Of a DNA stretch of 64,000 bases, positions 2,568 to 36,193 are shown in pieces. The stretch spans positions 4,618 through 68,617 of the forward strand of contig DATKGV010000008.1 of the NCBI GenBank assembly GCA_035510575.1, in the 5' to 3' direction. The notes beneath the pieces are model-generated. The model was given only the letters and a program-made list of their open reading frames with translations. It was not told the DNA's origin and did not search any database. The position numbers and the translations under genes are program-made. Position 1 is the stretch's first letter, and every line of letters starts with the position of its first letter. This DNA comes from Minisyncoccota bacterium (lineage in GTDB: Bacteria > Patescibacteriota > Minisyncoccia > Phycocordibacterales > UBA9973).

Positions 2568-5294
2568 TTACTGTCTATATTTTTCCATTATCTCCTCTTC
2601 TATCTCGGCGCGGTCGCGGCCGTATTTCAAATATGACAGCTCCTTGATCTTATCAACGATTTCCATAATGCCTTGCGCAGGCGAATATGTTTTTATATTG
2701 AACGGCTTGGTCGGCTGGCCGTTTATGAGCATTGATAAATAAGCGTTGTAGTTTTCAATTTTCATAATATCGGCTGCCGTAAAGACCGGCTTGAATTTGC
2801 TTTCAAGGAATTGCGCATCATCGGCTCCAACTCGGAAAACCGCCATTGATCCAACGTTGCCGAAGACCGCATCTTTTATATTTTCTTCGAGCTGAGCTAT
2901 GTATTGATGCGCCACAGTCAGCGACAGGCGATATTTGCGGGCTTCAGAAAGTATGGATTCAATTGAATCAGTTGTTACGTTCTGGAATTCATCTATATAA
3001 AGATAAAAGTCCTCCATTTTTTTGCCGTACATATCCACGCGCGAAAGCGCCGCCATCTGTATTTTGCCGACAATCAGAAGCCCGATCAGATTGGCGTTAA
3101 TATCACCCAGGCGCCCTTTTGAAAGATTAACTAAGAGGATTTTCTTGCTATCCATGATGTCTCGGAAATTAAAGACCGATTTTTCCTGAAGAACGACCGG
3201 GCGCATAATGTCATTTGAAATAAAATTATCAAATTTGGAAGTTATATACGGCACGAAGTTAGCCAAGCTTTGTTCGCCTGTTGTTTGCTCGGCATTTTTC
3301 CAGAATTGAGTAATAATAGGATTCTTGCAATGCGACAGCTTCATGTCTCGAAAGGCCTTGTCTGAAAGAACGCGCCCGATTTCAAGCAACGTTGAACCGC
3401 TCTCGGGATGTTCCATCACAAGAAAGGCCGAGTTCTTGAAATATTGCTCGAACATCGGGCCGCCGGAGGTTTTCATATCAAAAAGCTTGTTGAAAATGCT
3501 CATCAGTTCGTTCACTACGAATGTCTTCTGCTCAGGATATTTAGGATCATACTCAAGCATGTTCAAGCCCATCGGCCGCGGAGTGTATGCCGGATCAAAA
3601 TAAATAACGTCATCAATTCTTTCCTTCGGTATATAGCTTAAGATATCCTGAATATCGGTTCCATGAGGATCGATATAGCATACTCCATGCCCCATTTCTA
3701 TGTCCTGGGCAATCATATTCTTCATAATAGTTGTCTTGCCAGTACCCGTCTGTCCGATAACATATAAGTGGCGCATGCGATCTTCCGGGGCAAAATGCAC
3801 TTCCGTATCTTTGCCTCTGTAACTATTAACGCCTAGAACAACGCCCTTGTTTCCCATTTCAATCGGCGCCGGCGCAATACCGGCTCTGGCTTGTTTGAGC
3901 TGAGGCGATGACGCTATACCGTAAGGAAAATGGAAAATTGTCGCCAGTTCTTTCAAGTTTAGCGGCATTCCGTATTTATTGGAAAATGTTCTATAAGAAA
4001 AATCGTGGACCAAATCATTCAGCTCGCCTCCCTCCAAGTTATGAAAATTAAATCCGTTGCGGTCAGCTTCGGTAAACTGGTTGAACGATGATTCAATGTC
4101 GGCAAGAATCTGCTTGGCGCGCGAGCTCGTTTCAGCTGAAGCGATTATGCGGATATTCGCTCCCATAATAGTGCTCTTTAATTTCTCTGTAATATTTTCC
4201 ACCGCTTTGTCATTGACTTTTTTCTCTTTGTTTTTTGAAGGGCCGAATATCATTTCCTTGGCAATAGAGCCGAAGCCCTTGGCGAATTGGCGAGTCATGT
4301 TTCCTGCAGTCCGAACCGACATGCCTTCTTTGACATCAGAGAGAACTATGTGGAATTTTTTGATGATTTCATCATCTTCCGGGCATATTATGAATTGAAT
4401 AGAAGCTCCTTCGCCTGATTTTTTCAGCTTGGTAAAAACATTCAATATAATATTAAGCGGATCATGATCAAGCGCATCATAGAGCTTTATCGGATAAACT
4501 TCATGATGAGCAAGCGTAGCATATGAGCCGGCCACAGCCCCGCCTTCAGTAAAAATATTATAGTCATCCGGAACTTCCACGACTTTAGCGTTCGGATGCA
4601 CGCCAAGAAGCTGTTTCTCGAACAAGTCGGCTTTGTGCGCCGGCACTGCGGCATAGAATATGAATTCGTCGCTATTTTCAGATAAAGCTATCTCAAGAGC
4701 AAAATGATTGCGGCTGTAATTTTCCCGCCCTTCGCCCACGGAATGCATGCCGGCATAGAATTGCTCCATCGCTCCCAATAATTCTTTCAACCCTTTTTTG
4801 TTATTTTCATCAGTTGTCGGATCAGGAAGCGTAATTTCAAATAATTTCATATCAAGGGACTTGAAAAGAGGCGTACCTTCCTTAAGCCCCGGAATCTTAT
4901 GAGTGCTTGATAAATATTGGACCAAGAAACGATGGAAATCGTCGTCCAAATGCGGATTATTCATTTTTCTGACTATTGATAAAGTGCTTGAGATTCCTTT
5001 ATCAAGCAGAAGTCCTAGCATTTCTTCCATTTTCCTGTCATGAGCTTCAGGATGAAGGCGCAAAATCAGCTTCTCGGCTTCATCTATCGGTATGAGATTT
5101 TTATCATACATTACCTCTTCGGGTTCATACTCCTTGTATTCTTGAATTACATTACTCGCCAGCTCTTCGTGACTTACTTCCTGCCCTTCTTGCTTAAGAG
5201 CTTCCTCTCGTTCTCTTATATGTGCGCGCAAAAACTCCAGCTCTTCCTGCGGGCTTTTGAATTTCGGCGCATTGTTTAAACTAAAATTCTCCAT
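2568..5294 (-). CDS. large P-loop ATPase of the TraG/TraD/VirD4 (T4SS coupling protein-like, FtsK/HerA superfamily) type with an unknown roughly 450-aa N-terminal region
   Basis: 908 aa. Walker A 'GQTGTGKTT', Walker B-like 'LYIDEFQN', and a following 'TVAHQ' motif typical of T4SS DNA-transfer ATPases. N-terminal half has no recognisable motif. Confidence 0.45.
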   Translation of the reverse strand: MENFSLNNAPKFKSPQEELEFLRAHIREREEALKQEGQEVSHEELASNVIQEYKEYEPEEVMYDKNLIPIDEAEKLILRLHPEAHDRKMEEMLGLLLDKGISSTLSIVRKMNNPHLDDDFHRFLVQYLSSTHKIPGLKEGTPLFKSLDMKLFEITLPDPTTDENNKKGLKELLGAMEQFYAGMHSVGEGRENYSRNHFALEIALSENSDEFIFYAAVPAHKADLFEKQLLGVHPNAKVVEVPDDYNIFTEGGAVAGSYATLAHHEVYPIKLYDALDHDPLNIILNVFTKLKKSGEGASIQFIICPEDDEIIKKFHIVLSDVKEGMSVRTAGNMTRQFAKGFGSIAKEMIFGPSKNKEKKVNDKAVENITEKLKSTIMGANIRIIASAETSSRAKQILADIESSFNQFTEADRNGFNFHNLEGGELNDLVHDFSYRTFSNKYGMPLNLKELATIFHFPYGIASSPQLKQARAGIAPAPIEMGNKGVVLGVNSYRGKDTEVHFAPEDRMRHLYVIGQTGTGKTTIMKNMIAQDIEMGHGVCYIDPHGTDIQDILSYIPKERIDDVIYFDPAYTPRPMGLNMLEYDPKYPEQKTFVVNELMSIFNKLFDMKTSGGPMFEQYFKNSAFLVMEHPESGSTLLEIGRVLSDKAFRDMKLSHCKNPIITQFWKNAEQTTGEQSLANFVPYITSKFDNFISNDIMRPVVLQEKSVFNFRDIMDSKKILLVNLSKGRLGDINANLIGLLIVGKIQMAALSRVDMYGKKMEDFYLYIDEFQNVTTDSIESILSEARKYRLSLTVAHQYIAQLEENIKDAVFGNVGSMAVFRVGADDAQFLESKFKPVFTAADIMKIENYNAYLSMLINGQPTKPFNIKTYSPAQGIMEIVDKIKELSYLKYGRDRAEIEEEIMEKYRQ

Positions 5295-5472: not shown

Positions 5473-6240
5473 TTATATTTCAGTCAAAATTTCCGCTTCA
5501 CCTTCTGTTATAAGTATCGTATGTTCAAAATGCGCGGAGCGCGAGCCATCGGCTGTCTTAACCGTATAGCCGTCATCCGAGCTTATGATATCCGCCTTGC
5601 CGATATTTATCATCGGTTCAATGGCTATGACCATTCCAGGAATTAATTTCTGCCCATGCCCAGCTTTGCCATAATTTGGAACATAAGGATCTTCATGAAT
5701 TTTTATGCCAACTCCATGTCCGGCAAGTTCGCGAACTATGCCATATCTTTTATTTATAAATTGTTCAATGGCATGGCCAACATCTCCAACAGTATTTCCA
5801 CCACGCGCCATATCTATACCAACCATTAATGCTTCTTTAGTGTCATACATAAGCTTCTCTGATTTTTTATCAGTTTTTCCGACCGGCACAGTCACGGCAT
5901 GATCAGTAAATAGTCCTTTATGCTTGATCCCAAGATCAAGCGAAACAATATCGCCAGCTTTCAAAATTTTATTTCTGCTTGGAATTCCATGAACAACTTC
6001 GTTATTTACCGAAATACAAATTGAAGCAGGAAATGCGCGTGATACGCCGTCCGGCTTATAATTCAAAAATGCCGGTTCATCTTCAAGTTCTTTTATTAAA
6101 TCATAAGCATACTTATCAAGTTCAAATGTTGAAATCCCCGGCGCAACTTTTTTTGCAACCTTCGCCAAAACAGCCGCCAAGCGCTTTCCACCTTCTCTTA
6201 TAATATTTATTTGTTCTTTTGTTTTTATAATAACTGACAT
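5473..6240 (-). CDS. map: methionine aminopeptidase type I
   Basis: 255 aa with the conserved metal-ligand pattern (D..D, H, E, E) and 'VHGIP' / 'GHGVG' motifs of MetAP-I. Confidence 0.85.
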   Translation of the reverse strand: MSVIIKTKEQINIIREGGKRLAAVLAKVAKKVAPGISTFELDKYAYDLIKELEDEPAFLNYKPDGVSRAFPASICISVNNEVVHGIPSRNKILKAGDIVSLDLGIKHKGLFTDHAVTVPVGKTDKKSEKLMYDTKEALMVGIDMARGGNTVGDVGHAIEQFINKRYGIVRELAGHGVGIKIHEDPYVPNYGKAGHGQKLIPGMVIAIEPMINIGKADIISSDDGYTVKTADGSRSAHFEHTILITEGEAEILTEI

Positions 6241-6277: not shown

Positions 6278-7963
6278 CTAATAAACTTCTTGTTGATAAC
6301 ATTTTTCACAGTAAACAATTTCGGGTCTATCTGGTGCATAGCTTGTCTCAAATTCAACTTGGCATTTTCCTTCATGATTAGGATGCTTTTTATCGCACAT
6401 ACATTGCCTTTGCCAAAGTTTAGATGGTCCACGAAGTTTGAATCTATTTTCTAAACGACAAAAGAAACAATGCCTTGGTATTGGAATTTTCCATTTTTTA
6501 TAAAAATTTAATTCTTCATTTACTATTTTGTAATTTCTTTTGCAAATTAAACATTCAAGAATTTCATCTGTAATTGAATCTGATATATCGTTAATATTAT
6601 CTGAGACTTCAAAAAGAGTAGTTTTTCCTCTTGTTTGTTGAATATTATTCTGCCAACGAAACCCTTTTCTTAAAACATTTTCTTTTGAAAGTGGAAAGTA
6701 AAGCATCGCCATTGATTCATTATAAGCAAAAGAAGACATAGACATTGGGAAAAATTCTCCCCATTCCCCTGTTTTTTTCATATACTCTATAATTTTATTT
6801 TTAAGTTCAAAATATTCATCTTTTGTATATTCTTTATTAAAGATAGAATATTTACAATGCTTTAATCCCACACAACCAAAACATTCCTGACATGACATAC
6901 AAAAGTCAGAATAAAGAACATCCAAACTTTTCCAAACATAATTAACAAATAATGCTCGGGTTGAATGATCTGGAGTTATTCCTTCATAGCATTGTTCGAG
7001 TTCCCCGCCAACCGATAAATCATAGCTGTCTTTTTGGGTATCTCCATTTTCAATATATCTGCTATTTTCAAGTCTTCTAGTGTGAAAAGCATCTTTAGAA
7101 TTTTTACTATTTGCCAAATTATTTCCAGTGCAATTTAAACAATTATTGAAATTGGCATATTTTCTAGGCTGTTTTATAATAAATTCATTAAATTGTTTTT
7201 TAGCTTTTTCTACACCAGTCCAACTATCAAGCGAATAGTTAGCTATTATTTTTTCATATTCTTCTTTTACATATTGTTTATTTAAAATATTAAATTTTTT
7301 ATTTCGAAGTCCTACACACATAAAACAGTTACTGCATCCTCGGCAATCGTAACAAAAAATACAATTCACCAGTGTATTTGAATCTTGAATATATTTTGAA
7401 CCAAAACAATCCTGACTATACAGAGCTTCATAAAGACCTTCGCTTTTACTCATAATTCCCATACTATCCACAATATCTTTCGCATCAACTCCATATGCAA
7501 AATACATGCAATTTTCAATTTTCCAAGAAACTATTGTCATATAACAATCTTTACTGTAAACAACATCTTGAGTATATTCACAATTAGTACTGCCAATAGT
7601 ATTATCATTTACTAATGCCAAAGTAGGAATTTTCATGCGAAATTCATTAAATTGTTCAAAGAATGGTTTAGAAAAATCAAAACTCTGAGCGTATTTCTTT
7701 GGATCCCATATATCACCCCACCAACATTTATTGCAATAAATTATTTGTGGATTATCTGGAGAATAAATTGAAATTATATTTCTTTTGCATAAATCGCAAG
7801 TACGATTATAAAAAATAAATTCATTTCGCCATGAAAGTCTTCTTTGGCTTCTGCATTCTGGGCACCAAGTAGGTGCTGGAACCTTTATTTTCTCATAAAA
7901 AGAAAAGTCGTCTGGCTCAATTATAAAGTCTTTTTTGCAATTCTGGCAATTCCTAGTTTCCAT
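6278..7963 (-). CDS. cysteine-rich multi-zinc-ribbon protein of unknown function
   Basis: 561 aa with more than 40 Cys arranged as repeated CxxC pairs. N- and C-termini carry similar CxxC...FYxKxKxPxPxxCxxCR modules. The centre carries repeated C..C..C..C.GL modules. Confidence 0.5.
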   Translation of the reverse strand: METRNCQNCKKDFIIEPDDFSFYEKIKVPAPTWCPECRSQRRLSWRNEFIFYNRTCDLCKRNIISIYSPDNPQIIYCNKCWWGDIWDPKKYAQSFDFSKPFFEQFNEFRMKIPTLALVNDNTIGSTNCEYTQDVVYSKDCYMTIVSWKIENCMYFAYGVDAKDIVDSMGIMSKSEGLYEALYSQDCFGSKYIQDSNTLVNCIFCYDCRGCSNCFMCVGLRNKKFNILNKQYVKEEYEKIIANYSLDSWTGVEKAKKQFNEFIIKQPRKYANFNNCLNCTGNNLANSKNSKDAFHTRRLENSRYIENGDTQKDSYDLSVGGELEQCYEGITPDHSTRALFVNYVWKSLDVLYSDFCMSCQECFGCVGLKHCKYSIFNKEYTKDEYFELKNKIIEYMKKTGEWGEFFPMSMSSFAYNESMAMLYFPLSKENVLRKGFRWQNNIQQTRGKTTLFEVSDNINDISDSITDEILECLICKRNYKIVNEELNFYKKWKIPIPRHCFFCRLENRFKLRGPSKLWQRQCMCDKKHPNHEGKCQVEFETSYAPDRPEIVYCEKCYQQEVY

Positions 7964-8042
7964 AACACCATTATATCAAAGTATAAATAAAATACCTTAT
8001 AATCACTTTGAACGATCGTCTAATTAGGTTATAATAAGAAAT

Positions 8043-8525
8043 ATGAATATTATACAAGAAACACTGCATACTATTAGTAATTATCCTGGCGGATACAGGA
8101 TGATTTATGACTTAATATATAAAGAAAGGAATAAACCAAAGAATAATGGGCAAGTACTTAGAAATACATTATCAAAAATGAAAAAACGTGGATTACTTTC
8201 TAATGAAAAAGGTGTTTGGAAAATCACACCAGAAGGAAAGATTTTCTTAAAAAATGAGAATGTATCATTGATTAAATTTTCAGATTCAAAAAATAAAAAC
8301 AATAAACTTCCCAAAACAACGATGGTAGTTTTTGATATTCCTGAAAAGAAAAGGCTTTACCGTAACTGGCTTCGCAATGAACTTGTTGGCTTTGGATTTA
8401 CACTTATTCAAAAAAGTGTATGGTTTGGTCCAGCACTTCCAAAAGAATTTATATCTTATCTATCGGATCGTAAAATATTGGAATATGTAAGATTCTTTAA
8501 AGTTACAGAGAATGATCTAATTTAA
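8043..8525 (+). CDS. small putative DNA-binding protein, paralog A (wHTH-like N-terminus with a conserved 'DIPE..KR...R..L...F..IQKSVWFGP' C-terminal module)
   Basis: 160 aa. A clear paralog of the ORF at 33894-34394 shares 'V/LFDIPEKK', 'IQKSVW(F/V)GP' and 'LPKEFI(S/D)Y'. The C-terminal module is loosely reminiscent of Cas2/PaaX-type folds (tentative). Confidence 0.5.
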   Translation: MNIIQETLHTISNYPGGYRMIYDLIYKERNKPKNNGQVLRNTLSKMKKRGLLSNEKGVWKITPEGKIFLKNENVSLIKFSDSKNKNNKLPKTTMVVFDIPEKKRLYRNWLRNELVGFGFTLIQKSVWFGPALPKEFISYLSDRKILEYVRFFKVTENDLI

Positions 8526-8618
8526 ATTTATTAAATATGTTTATAACTTGTATAGACGATCGTCTGATTTGGTTATAAGTTATAATTATGATTTATATAA
8601 AGTATATTAAGAAAAATT

Positions 8619-9305
8619 TTATTTTATCACAGTCCCTATAAATTCCTTATTGTCAATATAGTTCTTGAGATTTTCCATGTTTCTGCCGTTTACAATGACA
8701 ACTTCAAGAGAAAGCGACTCGGCTTTCTCGGCTGCAATCGGGTCAAAAGGCGAACTTAATCCCGGATTCCATTCTTTGGGCAGCAGAGCGCGGAAATCTT
8801 TCCACGAACTTTCTTTTATCATTTTCGCGTCTGGATATATTTTGGGATCCTTGTCATAAGCATGATCAATGTTTGAAAGATTTATTATTCTTTTGACATT
8901 AAGCTGTTCGGCAATGACAACAGCGTCATAATCGCTGCTCCATCCCGGCTTCCATCCGGCGCCGATCATAATCGGCCTATCGGTCTCAGGAACTATGTTT
9001 GGGTCTATAATAATATCTGAATGCGCAAGAGAACCGAATATCAGGCGCATAAATTCCGCATTCAGGCGAGTCGCATAAATGCCGAGCCAATCAAGGGAAC
9101 TGGAAGAAGATTCTGAAACGTCGCTGAGCGCTTTTTGATAGCGCCTGCAGGTCTTGCCGCCGCCGGTAATAATAACAAAGTGATACCCTTTATTCACATA
9201 TTCTTTAATAGTCGAAACAAAAGATTTTAAAAAATCAGCATCTATCTGGTCTGGAACTATGAGCGAACCGCCGAGAGATATGACAATGTGTTCTTTTTTG
9301 TCCAT
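8619..9305 (-). CDS. pyrH: UMP kinase, archaeal-type amino-acid-kinase family
   Basis: 228 aa with 'VISLGGSLI' and 'VIITGGG' motifs of the carbamate/UMP kinase fold. Located next to adk. Confidence 0.6.
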   Translation of the reverse strand: MDKKEHIVISLGGSLIVPDQIDADFLKSFVSTIKEYVNKGYHFVIITGGGKTCRRYQKALSDVSESSSSSLDWLGIYATRLNAEFMRLIFGSLAHSDIIIDPNIVPETDRPIMIGAGWKPGWSSDYDAVVIAEQLNVKRIINLSNIDHAYDKDPKIYPDAKMIKESSWKDFRALLPKEWNPGLSSPFDPIAAEKAESLSLEVVIVNGRNMENLKNYIDNKEFIGTVIK

Positions 9306-33893: not shown

Positions 33894-34394
33894 ATGTATA
33901 ATATAATTATGTCTTTAAAAAATGAAATTTTAGAAATATTGAATACTCCTAAATTTTACTATAAAGGAATTCCAATGAATGCCCTATTTTTACCTGCCCT
34001 AGACAGTTATAAACATAAAACAATTCAAAATAATTTTTATAATCTTAAAAAAGAAGGGTATATAGAAAAATCAAATGGAAAATTCATAATAAATAAAAAC
34101 GGTAAAAATTTTTTAGAAAAATCTAAAAAACCGCAATTAAAAATTTTCAAAAGTATGAAAAATAATAATCCTAAAAATCTGCTTCTACTTTATGATATTC
34201 CGGAAGATAAGAAAAAAGAGCGCGATTGGTTCCGCCGCACATTGATAAAATTTAGTTTTGTGATGATTCAAAAAAGTGTCTGGGTTGGGCCGTCTCCTTT
34301 ACCAAAAGAATTTATTGATTATACAAAATCAATAGGATTAAAAGATTCTATAAAAAGTTTCAAGTTGGAAAAAGGATATAATATACAAAAATAA
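33894..34394 (+). CDS. small putative DNA-binding protein, paralog B (same family as 8043-8525)
   Basis: Shares 'LLLYDIPEDKKKER..FRRTL..F.FVMIQKSVWVGPSPLPKEFIDY' with paralog A. Flanked by its own direct repeats. Confidence 0.5.
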   Translation: MYNIIMSLKNEILEILNTPKFYYKGIPMNALFLPALDSYKHKTIQNNFYNLKKEGYIEKSNGKFIINKNGKNFLEKSKKPQLKIFKSMKNNNPKNLLLLYDIPEDKKKERDWFRRTLIKFSFVMIQKSVWVGPSPLPKEFIDYTKSIGLKDSIKSFKLEKGYNIQK

Positions 34395-34493: not shown

Positions 34494-35585
34494 ATGAAAA
34501 TAACAATAAAAAAGCTTGAAAAAAGCGAAGTGGAAATATTGGGCGTATTACCTGTGGCAGATTTTGAAAAGTATGAGGAGAAGGCTCTTAATATCATAAG
34601 TGAAAGAGTTGAATTGCCGGGCTTCAGAAAAGGTAAAGCTCCTATCGCAATGATAAAAGAAAATGTAAAAGAAATGGAATTATTGGAAGAAATGGCAGAA
34701 CAGGCGCTTTATGATAATTATCCAAAAATATTACAAGAGAATAAAATAGACGCTATCGGCCGACCACAAATCGCAATTACTAAAATTGCCAAGGGTTCCG
34801 ATTTGGAATTCAAAATATTAACGGCAGTATTGCCGGAGATAAAGCTTCCTGACTATAAAAAAATAGCTAAAGAAAAAAATAGTAGCAATGATTTCAAAAA
34901 AGAAATTGTAGTCGATGAAGCAATGGTTGAGAAAACAATTCTTGATTTACGCAAAATGCGAGCTGAGCAAGCACAACATAAGGATCATGAACATGTACCT
35001 GCCCGCCCTCACGATGTTTCGGGAGCAGGCGGGAAAGGAGAAACTCACGTTGAAATTCCTGAAAGCGAATATCCGGCGTTTGATGATGCTTTCGCCAAAA
35101 CATTCGGCGACTTTGCCAGCGCTGAGGCATTAAAAGAAAAAATTCGCGCCAATCTAAAAATTGAAAAAGAAACCGAGCAGAAAGACAAGCTTCGTCTTGC
35201 TATTGTTGAGGAACTTTTGAAACAATCAGAATGCGAAATTCCAGAAATTCTTATAGACAGCGAAGTTGAAAAGATTTTCTATCGTTTGGAAGCAGATATT
35301 ACAAATATGGGTTTCAAATTTGATGAATATTTAATTCAAATTAAGAAAACTGAAGAAGATTTGCGAAAAGAATGGCGACCTGAAGCAGAAAAGCGCGCCA
35401 AGCTTCAAATGATAATCCAGACAATTTCCGAAAAAGAAAATCTCAAAGCAACTGAAGAAGAAATTGAAAAGGAAGTGAATAACATCGTAACCATCTATAA
35501 GGATGCTGATCCAGCCCGCGCCCGCGCTTATGTGGAACAAATGCTTGAAAATGAAAAGGTCTTTGCATTTCTTGAGAAACAATAA
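34494..35585 (+). CDS. tig: trigger factor (short form)
   Basis: N-terminal ribosome-binding domain '[14 protein letters not shown]' and C-terminal chaperone arm. Immediately upstream of clpP as in many bacteria. Confidence 0.7.
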
Positions 35586-35602: not shown

Positions 35603-36193
35603 ATGTTAATTCCTACAGTTATAGAAAAAACAATGAATGGCGAACGGGCATATGATATCTACTCTCGCCTTTTGAACGAGCGTATTATTTTCCTCGGTGG
35701 TCCGATAGATGACAATGTCGCCAATCTTGTTATCGCTCAGCTTCTTTATTTGGATCATACAGATTCAAAGAAAGACATTCACCTTTATATAAACTCCCCC
35801 GGCGGTTCAGTTACTGCAGGGCTCGCAATCTTAGATACTATGGGTTTTGTGAAAGCCGATGTCTCTACTATATGTGTCGGTATCGCCGCATCAATGGGCG
35901 CAGTTCTACTTTCAGCTGGTACAAAAGGTAAAAGATTTGCGCTTCCCAATTCTGAAGTTATGATTCATCAAGTTATGGGTGGCGCTGAAGGCCAGGCCTC
36001 AGATATTGCTATCAATGCCAAACATATTCTTCGTACGAAAGATACATTAAATAAAATTTTGGCAAAAAATACTGGCCAGACAGTTACACAAGTAGAGAAA
36101 GATTCCGACCGCGACAATTACATGACCGCCGATGAAGCCAAAAAATACGGAATCATAGACGATACGGTTACTAAAGCGAAAAATAATAAATAA
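35603..36193 (+). CDS. clpP: ATP-dependent Clp protease proteolytic subunit
   Basis: Ser-His-Asp catalytic context '[11 protein letters not shown]' and 'MIHQVMGG'. Confidence 0.9.

Follow-up and report, generated by a model that had tools for sequence, protein, structure and literature searches.

LIM and GATA fingers are treble-clef binding modules, and the Cys4 zinc modules of DnaJ, ClpX, and Hsp33 bind clients or partners in chaperone systems. Two further families, zf_Tbcl (PF13451) and zf_Tbcl_2 (PF23477), are described as “probable treble clef” families of unknown function. The antifreeze protein of the beetle Tenebrio molitor (1ezg) is a narrow solenoid of 12-residue rungs with ladder cysteines that is secreted and held by disulfides, and γ-carbonic anhydrase, LpxA/LpxD, and GlmU are left-handed β-helix proteins. 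Here we compare with these systems a cysteine-rich protein of 561 amino acids (aa) encoded on the minus strand at 6278..7963 of a 64-kb stretch of DNA from a Minisyncoccota bacterium (contig DATKGV010000008.1), called the window below; FAM is the working name for the protein and its family. As an earlier note on this DNA had claimed, the gene was a real open reading frame (ORF) running from ATG to a stop codon (6278-6280). The parts of the protein were of known kinds, namely treble-clef fingers and a solenoid; their combination, the expansion of the family, and its association with an ATPase and with Hsp70 genes appear to be undescribed.

Overall architecture of FAM

The protein was laid out as A(1-95)-B(112-243)-hairpin-B'(265-398)-X(399-465)-A'(466-561), in which A and A' are terminal zinc-finger modules and B and B' the two halves of the center. 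The AlphaFold2 (AF2) model built from a diverse alignment folded as a single body, with a predicted local distance difference test (pLDDT) score of 92.2 and a predicted template modeling (pTM) score of 0.92. Neither a signal peptide nor a transmembrane or hydrophobic segment was found in the sequence or in a Kyte-Doolittle scan (maximum 19-residue mean of 1.08), and the protein is, as judged from its sequence, cytoplasmic. It was slightly acidic overall, with a family mean net charge of -5.5. The count of cysteines was 35 (6.2%) instead of the more than 40 that had been claimed; the CxxC motif was counted 13 times without overlap and 16 times with it, and paralogues contained up to 49 cysteines. 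The ends of the protein and residues 361-430 and 541-560 were conserved in the family, and residues 361-390 formed the most conserved part, whereas residues 141-200, 241-270, and 300-350 were variable, the last of these the most. Our tentative proposal, which we hold at well below even chance, is that FAM is a non-enzymatic adaptor scaffold working with the neighboring TraD/VirD4/HerA-like ATPase in protein quality control.

The gene is no assembly artefact, since the local order of a divergent winged helix-turn-helix (wHTH) gene, the FAM gene, and the methionine aminopeptidase gene (map) recurred in two other, independent assemblies. An identical protein (P0001) was on record in a metagenome-assembled genome of Candidatus Paceibacterota, labelled as a hypothetical protein.

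Terminal zinc-finger modules

Module A (residues 1-95; 7679..7963, minus strand) contained two Cys4 sites. Site 1 (C6/C9/C34/C37) was a zf_Tbcl-like treble clef with the motif FYxKIxVPxP and the Arg-rich helix CRxQRRLxxRN, and site 2 (C56/C59/C77/C80) was a LIM/GATA-like finger. Module A' (residues 466-561; 6281..6568, minus strand) was a duplicate of A and also held two sites, site 3 at C471/C474/C499/C502 and site 4 at C521(/C523)/C534/C552/C555. The arrangement that the earlier note had assigned to both ends was indeed shared, with CQNC...CPECR and CLIC...CFFCR both matching C..C-x(10-22)-FY.K.K.P.P..C..CR. The homology of A and A' was clear in BLASTP (E-value 1e-18, 29% identity over 95 residues) and in profile-profile comparison with hhalign (probability 99.8%, E 3e-28). 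The ends had also been called mirrored; the homology stood, but the modules were direct duplicates in the same orientation, and their placement alone was mirrored. Together with at least 7,965 homologues at E≤1e-3, the hhalign and BLASTP E-values place the pattern of FAM beyond chance. Zinc-module behavior was limited to residues ~1-95 and ~466-561, and the description of the protein as built almost entirely of CxxC zinc ribbons was not borne out.

Cysteine conservation was derived from two sets of aligned homologues, 78 close and 141 diverse ones, and co-occurrence (phi) from an alignment of 400 sequences. The site-1 ligands were 96-100% conserved, and the site-4 ligands C521, C534, C552, and C555 were 99-100% conserved. 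The cysteines C59, C77, and C80 of site 2 and C474, C499, and C502 of site 3 were present in 60-80% of the diverse members. Those of site 2 were kept or lost jointly (phi 0.99-1.0) and were missing in ~30-40% of the family, and those of site 3 also varied jointly (phi 0.88-0.94). In this all-or-none co-occurrence, sites 2 and 3 vary as sets of metal ligands are expected to. Four Cys4 sites, all present in the window protein, are thus supported by the alignments, and zinc would be the bound metal according to the ligand pattern. In a class of paralogues that included the one at L001:6244-7998 (L001 is one of the related loci described below), the cysteines of the second N-terminal finger were absent as a set while the rest of the protein was kept; this finger is therefore dispensable for the fold.

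PF13451 and PF23477 aligned to the first and second finger of each terminal module, respectively, and covered less than 20% of FAM and none of B, B', and X. The window protein scored 19.3 bits against PF13451 as a whole and 23.4 bits as an isolated module, against a cut-off of 24, which was passed by the paralogues P0200 (32.5 bits) and P0191 (25.2 bits). When 28 isolated modules were searched at E≤0.1, PF13451 was matched by 25 of them and PF23477 by 16. No match to PF23477 was found in the window protein at E≤10, and the best score among ten full-length paralogues was 23.7 bits (cut-off 27). A profile of the 28 modules matched the second LIM finger of CRP1 (1b8t) with an E-value of 1.8e-4 and GATA fingers with 0.013; the second finger of FAM, C-x2-C-x17-C-x2-C followed by an aromatic residue (“...VYCxxCW/Y”), aligned with both types. 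Such resemblance to treble clefs of the binding type is counted for the adaptor reading. A LIM domain itself, defined by the contiguous fingers C-x2-C-x16-23-H-x2-C and x2-C-x2-C-x16-21-C-x2-(C/H/D), was ruled out: the second finger alone aligned, the first finger of FAM was C-x2-C-x24-C-x2-C, an 18-residue Arg-rich helix separated the two fingers, and no His ligand was present. The Pfam LIM model was matched weakly by 5 of the 28 modules, with a best E-value of 0.0013. In Foldseek, the 40-residue terminal finger was the one part that matched, to phage proteins annotated as “putative zinc-ribbon”.

The earlier note had suggested a nucleic-acid-binding or redox scaffold. The same modules bear on the main rival of the adaptor reading, nucleic-acid handling, in which the Arg-rich treble clefs would bind DNA or RNA at the ends of the rod and the paralogues would load, target, or regulate a DNA-translocating motor used in DNA uptake, segregation, or repair by nucleotide-scavenging organisms. 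In the helix that follows the first finger, module A had R38, R41, R42, and N47 as invariant or nearly invariant positions and module A' had R503, R507, and R519; both modules were mildly basic (family means of +1.8 for A and +4.5 for A'), and the GATA fingers to which the second finger is similar bind DNA. Against this, the charge calculation showed that the solenoid and segment X were acidic, as was the family mean for the whole protein, and no DNA- or RNA-binding family reached threshold in Pfam or NCBIfam. With the neighborhood evidence discussed below, we regard this explanation as rather unlikely.

Central solenoid, hairpin, and segment X

Domain B (residues 112-243; 7235..7630, minus strand) was built from the 12-residue repeat x-[ND]-C-x-[YF]-x7 in ~9-10 rungs, and domain B' (residues 265-398; 6770..7171, minus strand) was a second copy of this rung domain. 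Comparison of B (112-243) with B' (265-391) in hhalign gave a probability of 99.95% and an E-value of 1.7e-37. The rung motif became apparent in both domains when the sequences were written in rows of 12, as did (CxxC-x8)n in the Cys-rich paralogues. Domain B ended in CxNCFxCxGLRNKxFxIxNKQYxKEEY plus a helix, and domain B' in CxxCxxCFGCVGLKxxKYSIFNKEYTKDEY plus the helix 381-398. In place of the four central repeats that had been claimed, there were two copies of C..C..C.GL..K.Y.I.NK.Y.KEEY, at residues ~207-236 and ~355-384, each of which closed one copy of the duplicated ~130-residue domain. The two domains were linked by a variable helical hairpin (residues 244-264; 7172..7234, minus strand); the AF2 model had helices 233-242 and 248-263 at this junction, and the hairpin, with 1.3-1.5 bits of information, was among the least conserved stretches.

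The period of the center was analyzed through the spacing of its cysteines. Across 141 sequences, ~93% of the Cys-Cys distances of up to 36 residues in domain B were multiples of 3, compared with 33% expected, and the peaks were at 3, 9, and 12. DSSP assigned a single β-bridge to every third residue between 178 and 223 of the AF2 model. A first AF2 model, made from close homologues, was less sure in the central region (pLDDT 58-74). In the models, B-B' is predicted to be a rod-like, internally duplicated β-solenoid, and with its 12-residue coil and strict three-residue register the central domain would be a new class of solenoid. Foldseek searches of the two AF2 models against PDB and BFVD returned nothing significant, the best PDB match having an E-value of 0.49, with template modeling (TM) scores of at most 0.2. 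Segment X (residues 399-465; 6569..6769, minus strand) followed the rod as a conserved region, GEWGEFFP...S.FAYNE...YFPL...W, with 2.9-3.0 bits of information per column and a pLDDT of 90-98 over residues 401-470; it had no match in Pfam or NCBIfam.

A sequence search of PDB with the FAM protein gave no matches, and the family profile gave insignificant ones only (LIM, E 0.16; 1ezg, E 1). The Tenebrio molitor protein 1ezg was the sole non-zinc-finger protein in PDB touched by the profile, and it shares with FAM the 12-residue rung, the ladder cysteines, and the narrow solenoid. Unlike 1ezg, FAM is cytoplasmic, its cysteines stand at i/i+3 rather than i/i+6, and its ladder tolerates Ser, Leu, and Val. 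The likeness is one of design and not of homology. Most of the weak Foldseek matches of both models were to left-handed β-helix proteins (γ-carbonic anhydrase, LpxA/LpxD, and GlmU), which fits the period of FAM in multiples of 3. A hexapeptide-repeat left-handed β-helix, recognised by [LIV]-[GAED]-x2-[STAV]-x hexads and 18-residue coils, was rejected, as there was no match to Pfam Hexapep, the Foldseek matches had E-values of at least 0.49 and TM scores of at most 0.2, and the coil is of 12 rather than 18 residues. No active-site motif of acyltransferases or carbonic anhydrases was found in FAM.

At every central cysteine position, 10-80% of the members had Ser, Leu, Val, or Ile instead. The co-occurrence of these cysteines reached a maximum phi of 0.55 (C201/C204), followed by 0.44, both for neighboring pairs, and was below 0.4 for the rest. 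Since these residues are freely exchanged and do not co-occur in an all-or-none manner, they look like interchangeable core residues of the ladder rather than metal ligands. The run C201-C216 had x2 spacing throughout and contained no Pro, unlike the cluster motifs CxxCxxCxxxCP and CxxxCxxC of 4Fe-4S ferredoxins and radical SAM proteins, and C201 and C204 were Cys in 26-31% of the diverse members and otherwise Ser or Leu. Fe-S, ferredoxin, and radical SAM proteins, of which the last two had been named as known abundant families that might claim this protein, were rejected, because no Pfam or NCBIfam match assigned FAM to them and the central cysteines were neither conserved nor co-varying.

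The behavior of the cysteines also bears on a redox- or metal-responsive role, in which FAM would buffer or sense zinc or thiols, or would be a holdase that oxidation switches on as in Hsp33, with zinc set free or disulfides formed by the cysteine ladder and the four Cys4 sites in times of stress. Hsp33 uses a Cys4 zinc centre as an oxidation switch. The high cysteine content of the window protein and its paralogues suits such a role, as do the members inside a heat-shock operon and the wHTH gene placed as at dnaK and tig-clpP. The central cysteines, however, were individually dispensable and did not co-vary, which argues against defined metal clusters or fixed disulfides; searches of Pfam, NCBIfam, and PDB linked FAM neither to Hsp33 or metallothionein nor to ferredoxin or thioredoxin-fold families; and buffering needs no dozens of diverged paralogues. 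This role is considered quite improbable. Members of the family lie inside the grpE-dnaK-dnaJ operon. A DnaJ-like protein, whose Cys-rich domain has four CxxCxGxG repeats, was rejected: there was no PF00684 match at E≤10, no J domain, and no CxxCxGxG, and a true DnaJ was encoded nearby. The nearest DnaJ-like strings in FAM were CRGCSNC and CQECFGCVG, and PDB entry 1exk was matched with an E-value of 2.3.

Family size and host range

A word-indexed search gave at least 7,965 FAM matches at E≤1e-3 among the 8,000 candidates scored. When 1.84 billion representatives were searched exhaustively with the family profile, 4,878 clusters at 50% identity were obtained, 2,096 of them at E≤1e-30. About 140 of the 150 matches listed were 520-610 aa long and aligned end-to-end with the profile. 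The best 80 genomic loci came from different species and carried labels of the Patescibacteria type (Nomurabacteria, Paceibacterota, Minisyncoccia, Staskawicz-, Lipton-, Harrison-, and Uhrbacteria, among others) except for two contigs, one labelled “Burkholderiales” (L077, ~31% G+C) and one “Ignavibacteria” (L005, 2.6 kb long). These two are likely mis-binned, and a wider host range was not accepted on their account. Among the loci examined, FAM is, going by these labels, confined to Patescibacteria.

Scans of the window protein against Pfam, NCBIfam, and PADLOC found nothing at threshold. For FAM there was no match to an enzyme family, an Fe-S protein, or a defense system in these three collections, and in PADLOC neither the window protein nor a paralogue matched at E≤0.01. 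Database entries were labelled “hypothetical protein”, apart from one JGI record, “uncharacterized protein YbaR (Trm112 family)”, and a full-text literature search found no description of the family or its neighborhood. FAM belongs to no characterised family, and the claim that it is an unrecognised, lineage-specific one agrees with the lack of a Pfam-A or NCBIfam model at threshold and with its loci in Patescibacteria.

Tandem arrays and copy divergence

For the neighborhood analysis, ORFs were clustered from 83 related loci of ~13.5 kb each. Of the 83, 61 contained 2 to 8 copies of FAM on the same strand. The loci with 1, 2, 3, 4, 5, and 6-8 copies numbered 22, 26, 17, 9, 6, and 4, respectively, in a tally that includes the window as a single-copy locus and partial copies at the ends of loci. 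A single stretch of 14 kb contained as many as 8 FAM genes, and a contig of 31 kb at least 5. No second copy was found by tblastn in the 64-kb window. A 584-aa FAM paralogue occupied the place of the window's wHTH gene in L001 and L010. Neighboring copies were 28-63% identical, with a median of 40% and none above 80%, and from this divergence the arrays are judged to be old and diversified. Conserved antisense ORFs within the FAM genes (ORF clusters 1 and 2) were treated as by-products of the conserved coding frame.

In each of 61 loci, FAM was lower in G+C content than the conserved genes at its flanks, by 5 points on average. The window was the extreme case, with 29.8% against 42.7% in the flanks, or 12.9 points lower. 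The FAM and wHTH genes together (6278-8600) formed a low-G+C island. When the window was compared with L001, the FAM orthologues were 55% identical and most flanking genes 65-90%, with PyrH (50%) as the exception. The two FAM genes nearest in sequence to the window copy (75% and 69% identity, in L087 and L088) were located in unrelated genomic places, so FAM copies relocate; this suggests relocation or transfer among Patescibacteria. A tblastn search of phage and plasmid collections gave no FAM match and IMG/VR one partial match at the end of a contig, and an origin from phages or other mobile elements was rejected on these grounds.

A conflict system, serving anti-phage defense or competition with hosts, would account for several of these properties if the arrayed paralogues were sensors or effectors coupled to the HerA/FtsK-like ATPase, on the model of the HerA-associated defense systems. 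Most loci carry several copies, FAM evolves faster than most of its flanking genes, its G+C content is uniformly low, and its closest relatives are scattered; in addition, the ATPase had weak PADLOC matches (mad8, E 3e-13; HerA, E 5e-7). The remaining evidence is opposed to it. FAM itself had no PADLOC match, the arrays are old (63% is the highest identity of any pair), and they run co-directionally within core housekeeping operons and not in defense islands. The partner ATPase is encoded by a core gene that is well conserved, phage and plasmid matches are lacking apart from the partial one in IMG/VR, and Pfam revealed no nuclease, NADase, or other effector domain. Such a system is therefore held to be improbable.

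Putative partner ATPase and gene neighborhood

The ATPase encoded near FAM in the window (2568..5294, minus strand; 908 aa) matched the Pfam families T4SS-DNA_transf, TrwB_AAD_bind, and TraG-D_C, and an N-terminal DUF8128 was seen on an orthologue. Its NCBIfam matches to TraD and CedD were far below the cut-offs, making it distant kin of the named coupling proteins. No transmembrane segment or membrane anchor was found in its sequence, and it was classed as soluble. It was well conserved, with 84% identity to the orthologue in L001. Both neighbors named in the earlier note, this TraG/VirD4-like ATPase and the wHTH/Cas2-like gene (8043..8525, plus strand), were present where expected, and the suggested check of co-occurrence in other genomes was positive: a member of the ATPase family was within ~6 kb of FAM in 26 of the 83 loci and directly abutted it in 16, in several distinct wider contexts. 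The ATPase was itself multi-copy (for example in L012, L032, L033, L042, L061, and L080) and fell into three size classes, one of ~490 aa just upstream of dnaJ, one of 600-700 aa after dnaK, and a long one of 850-1000 aa that has DUF8128 at its N terminus. These ATPases are themselves an uncharacterised family. The long form was followed by a protein of surface or secreted type with lamin-tail (LTD) and PKD domains in L012, L016, L033, and L050.

DnaK, GrpE, or DnaJ was encoded in 23 of the 83 loci, with the recurring order S9-GrpE-FAMn-wHTH<-DnaK-ATPase-FAMn-ATPase-DnaJ. Adjacency to the ATPase is a stronger signal than this Hsp70 block because it recurs in different settings. The gene for methionine aminopeptidase (Map; 5473..6240, minus strand; Peptidase_M24, E 4.4e-46) began 37 bp downstream of FAM, and the order FAM-Map-ATPase was also found in L001 and L010. 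The wider context in the window was SecY-Adk-PyrH-FAM-Map-ATPase. Other recurring contexts were ScpAB-FAM-MraY-FtsW-MurG, RpoBC-FAM-DnaG, UvrBAC-FAM, FAM-LepA, and the neighborhoods of aminoacyl-tRNA synthetases, HPF, and Def.

For nucleic-acid handling, the neighborhood points in both directions. The nearest named kin of the ATPase are the conjugative coupling proteins and the DNA-translocating CedD, some FAM copies lie near ScpAB, UvrABC, and RpoBC-DnaG, and Adk, PyrH, and Ndk are encoded in the window. However, the strongest specific signal in the neighborhood came from genes of the Hsp70 system and not of DNA metabolism, and the matches of the ATPase to TraD and CedD were, as noted, far below the family cut-offs.

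The ATPase also raises the possibility that the paralogues are exported effectors, cargo recognised by a VirD4-like ATPase, kept export-competent by Hsp70 and delivered to the host on which these episymbionts live. VirD4-type coupling proteins recruit effector substrates, diverged FAM arrays adjoin the ATPase, and the secreted-type LTD/PKD protein follows its long form in several loci. But the ATPase is without a transmembrane anchor, and further type IV secretion genes were found in none of the loci. Moreover, a rigid protein with four zinc sites would be a poor substrate for an unfolding-dependent channel, and the conserved parts of FAM were spread over the whole protein, with no terminal signal. 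Export was judged to be very improbable.

Several other genes were recorded in these neighborhoods. An archaeal-type UMP kinase gene (8619-9305, minus strand; TIGR02076, 178.5 bits, above the cut-off) was located between adk and FAM in the ribosomal-protein/secY operon, and three nucleotide kinases, namely this UMP kinase, adk, and ndk (1913-2497), were encoded within 8 kb. A 194-aa protein (cluster c51) with no Pfam or NCBIfam match followed dnaJ in loci with the ATPase, FAM, and DnaJ (L025, L061, L080:11904-12488, and others), and a 257-aa protein (cluster c163) was encoded between dnaK and the ATPase gene in L054 and L061.

The probable wHTH regulator and nearby DNA elements

The gene divergent from FAM (8043..8525, plus strand) encoded a 160-aa protein with a wHTH and a PaaX/Cas2-like part (PaaX_M, E 1.8e-13), which is likely a local regulator. 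The 79-bp spacer between the two genes contained a 23-nucleotide element, ACGATCGTCTAATTAGGTTATAA (8012..8034, plus strand), in which the palindrome ACGATCGT was embedded; in a promoter scan the element overlapped a promoter-like site, TTGAAC-16-TATAAT. A second copy lay just past the wHTH gene at 8556-8578, so that the window held two matches where 0 were expected. The wHTH gene was thus bracketed by a 23-nucleotide direct repeat, ACGATCGTCT(A/G)ATT(A/T)GGTTATAA, identical at 21 of 23 positions. Two origins may be considered for the repeat: duplication of an operator along with the gene, or insertion of a cassette, marked by the repeat at its ends, that took the place of a second FAM paralogue.

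A paralogue of the wHTH gene (33894..34394, plus strand; 35% identical to the gene at 8043) was located directly upstream of the genes for trigger factor (34494-35585) and ClpP (35603-36193). In 10 related loci a member of the wHTH family was divergent from dnaK, and 7 of the 10 spacers contained a CG-rich palindrome related to that of the window, TTCGYGnnCRCGAA, which is a candidate operator of the wHTH protein. The palindrome TTCGTGGTCRCGAA and its variants were found between promoter-like hexamers upstream of dnaK in L032, L039, L040, L043, L052, L054, and L055. From these positions, the small wHTH regulators may be the heat-shock or proteostasis repressors of the lineage, and the type of regulator groups the FAM-map-ATPase unit with the proteostasis operons, which is suggestive.

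Discussion

According to the adaptor reading, FAM would be a cytoplasmic binding scaffold in which the B-B' “rod” is capped at each end by homologous double zinc-finger modules. The conserved ends and segment X would dock onto a constant partner in the quality-control network of GrpE, DnaK, and DnaJ; the likeliest candidate is the soluble TraD/VirD4/HerA-like ATPase, which has expanded along with FAM. With the variable surfaces of its solenoid and hairpin, each paralogue would bind a client of its own, a protein or perhaps a nucleic acid, and the rows of old, diverged paralogues would then form a repertoire of adaptors for one motor. This reading fits the conserved zinc-finger ends, the variable middle, the old arrays, the lack of an enzyme signature, the cytoplasmic location, and the co-expanded motor.

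A number of observations weigh against it. Gene neighborhood was the sole link of FAM to the ATPase and Hsp70; the Hsp70 block was largely a single inherited synteny representing few independent events, and within the 64-kb window, which has the one FAM copy, no dnaK, grpE, or dnaJ was found. Many copies were instead placed in unrelated housekeeping operons (ScpAB-MraY-FtsW, RpoBC-DnaG, UvrABC, and aminoacyl-tRNA synthetases). The genomes in question are small and well stocked with genes for translation and proteostasis, and some such neighbors are expected by chance. The conserved Asp, Asn, Lys, and Tyr residues and the invariant segment X could equally mark an active site. Furthermore, motors of the TraD/FtsK/HerA type usually translocate DNA, and for this a role in nucleic-acid handling is an equally good or better explanation. 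The fuller claim, that FAM and the soluble ATPases make up an undescribed ATP-driven machine specific to Patescibacteria and encoded in the Hsp70 operon, with FAM proteins as interchangeable specificity adaptors and a central domain of a new solenoid class, is offered as doubtful.

The genomes of Patescibacteria contain well under a thousand genes. Many of these tiny genomes nonetheless keep rows of ~560-aa FAM genes and several copies of the ATPase, often inside an operon that is among the most conserved of all bacterial ones. An abundant family for which no curated Pfam or NCBIfam model, solved structure, or paper was found is a gap in the knowledge of these organisms. Should FAM be merely a structural or storage protein, the interest would lie mainly in the fold, which as predicted would be a useful new solenoid design. 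If the adaptor-plus-motor proposal is true, FAM would represent a new bacterial component of protein quality control, or of the handling of DNA, from a lineage in which culture is difficult.

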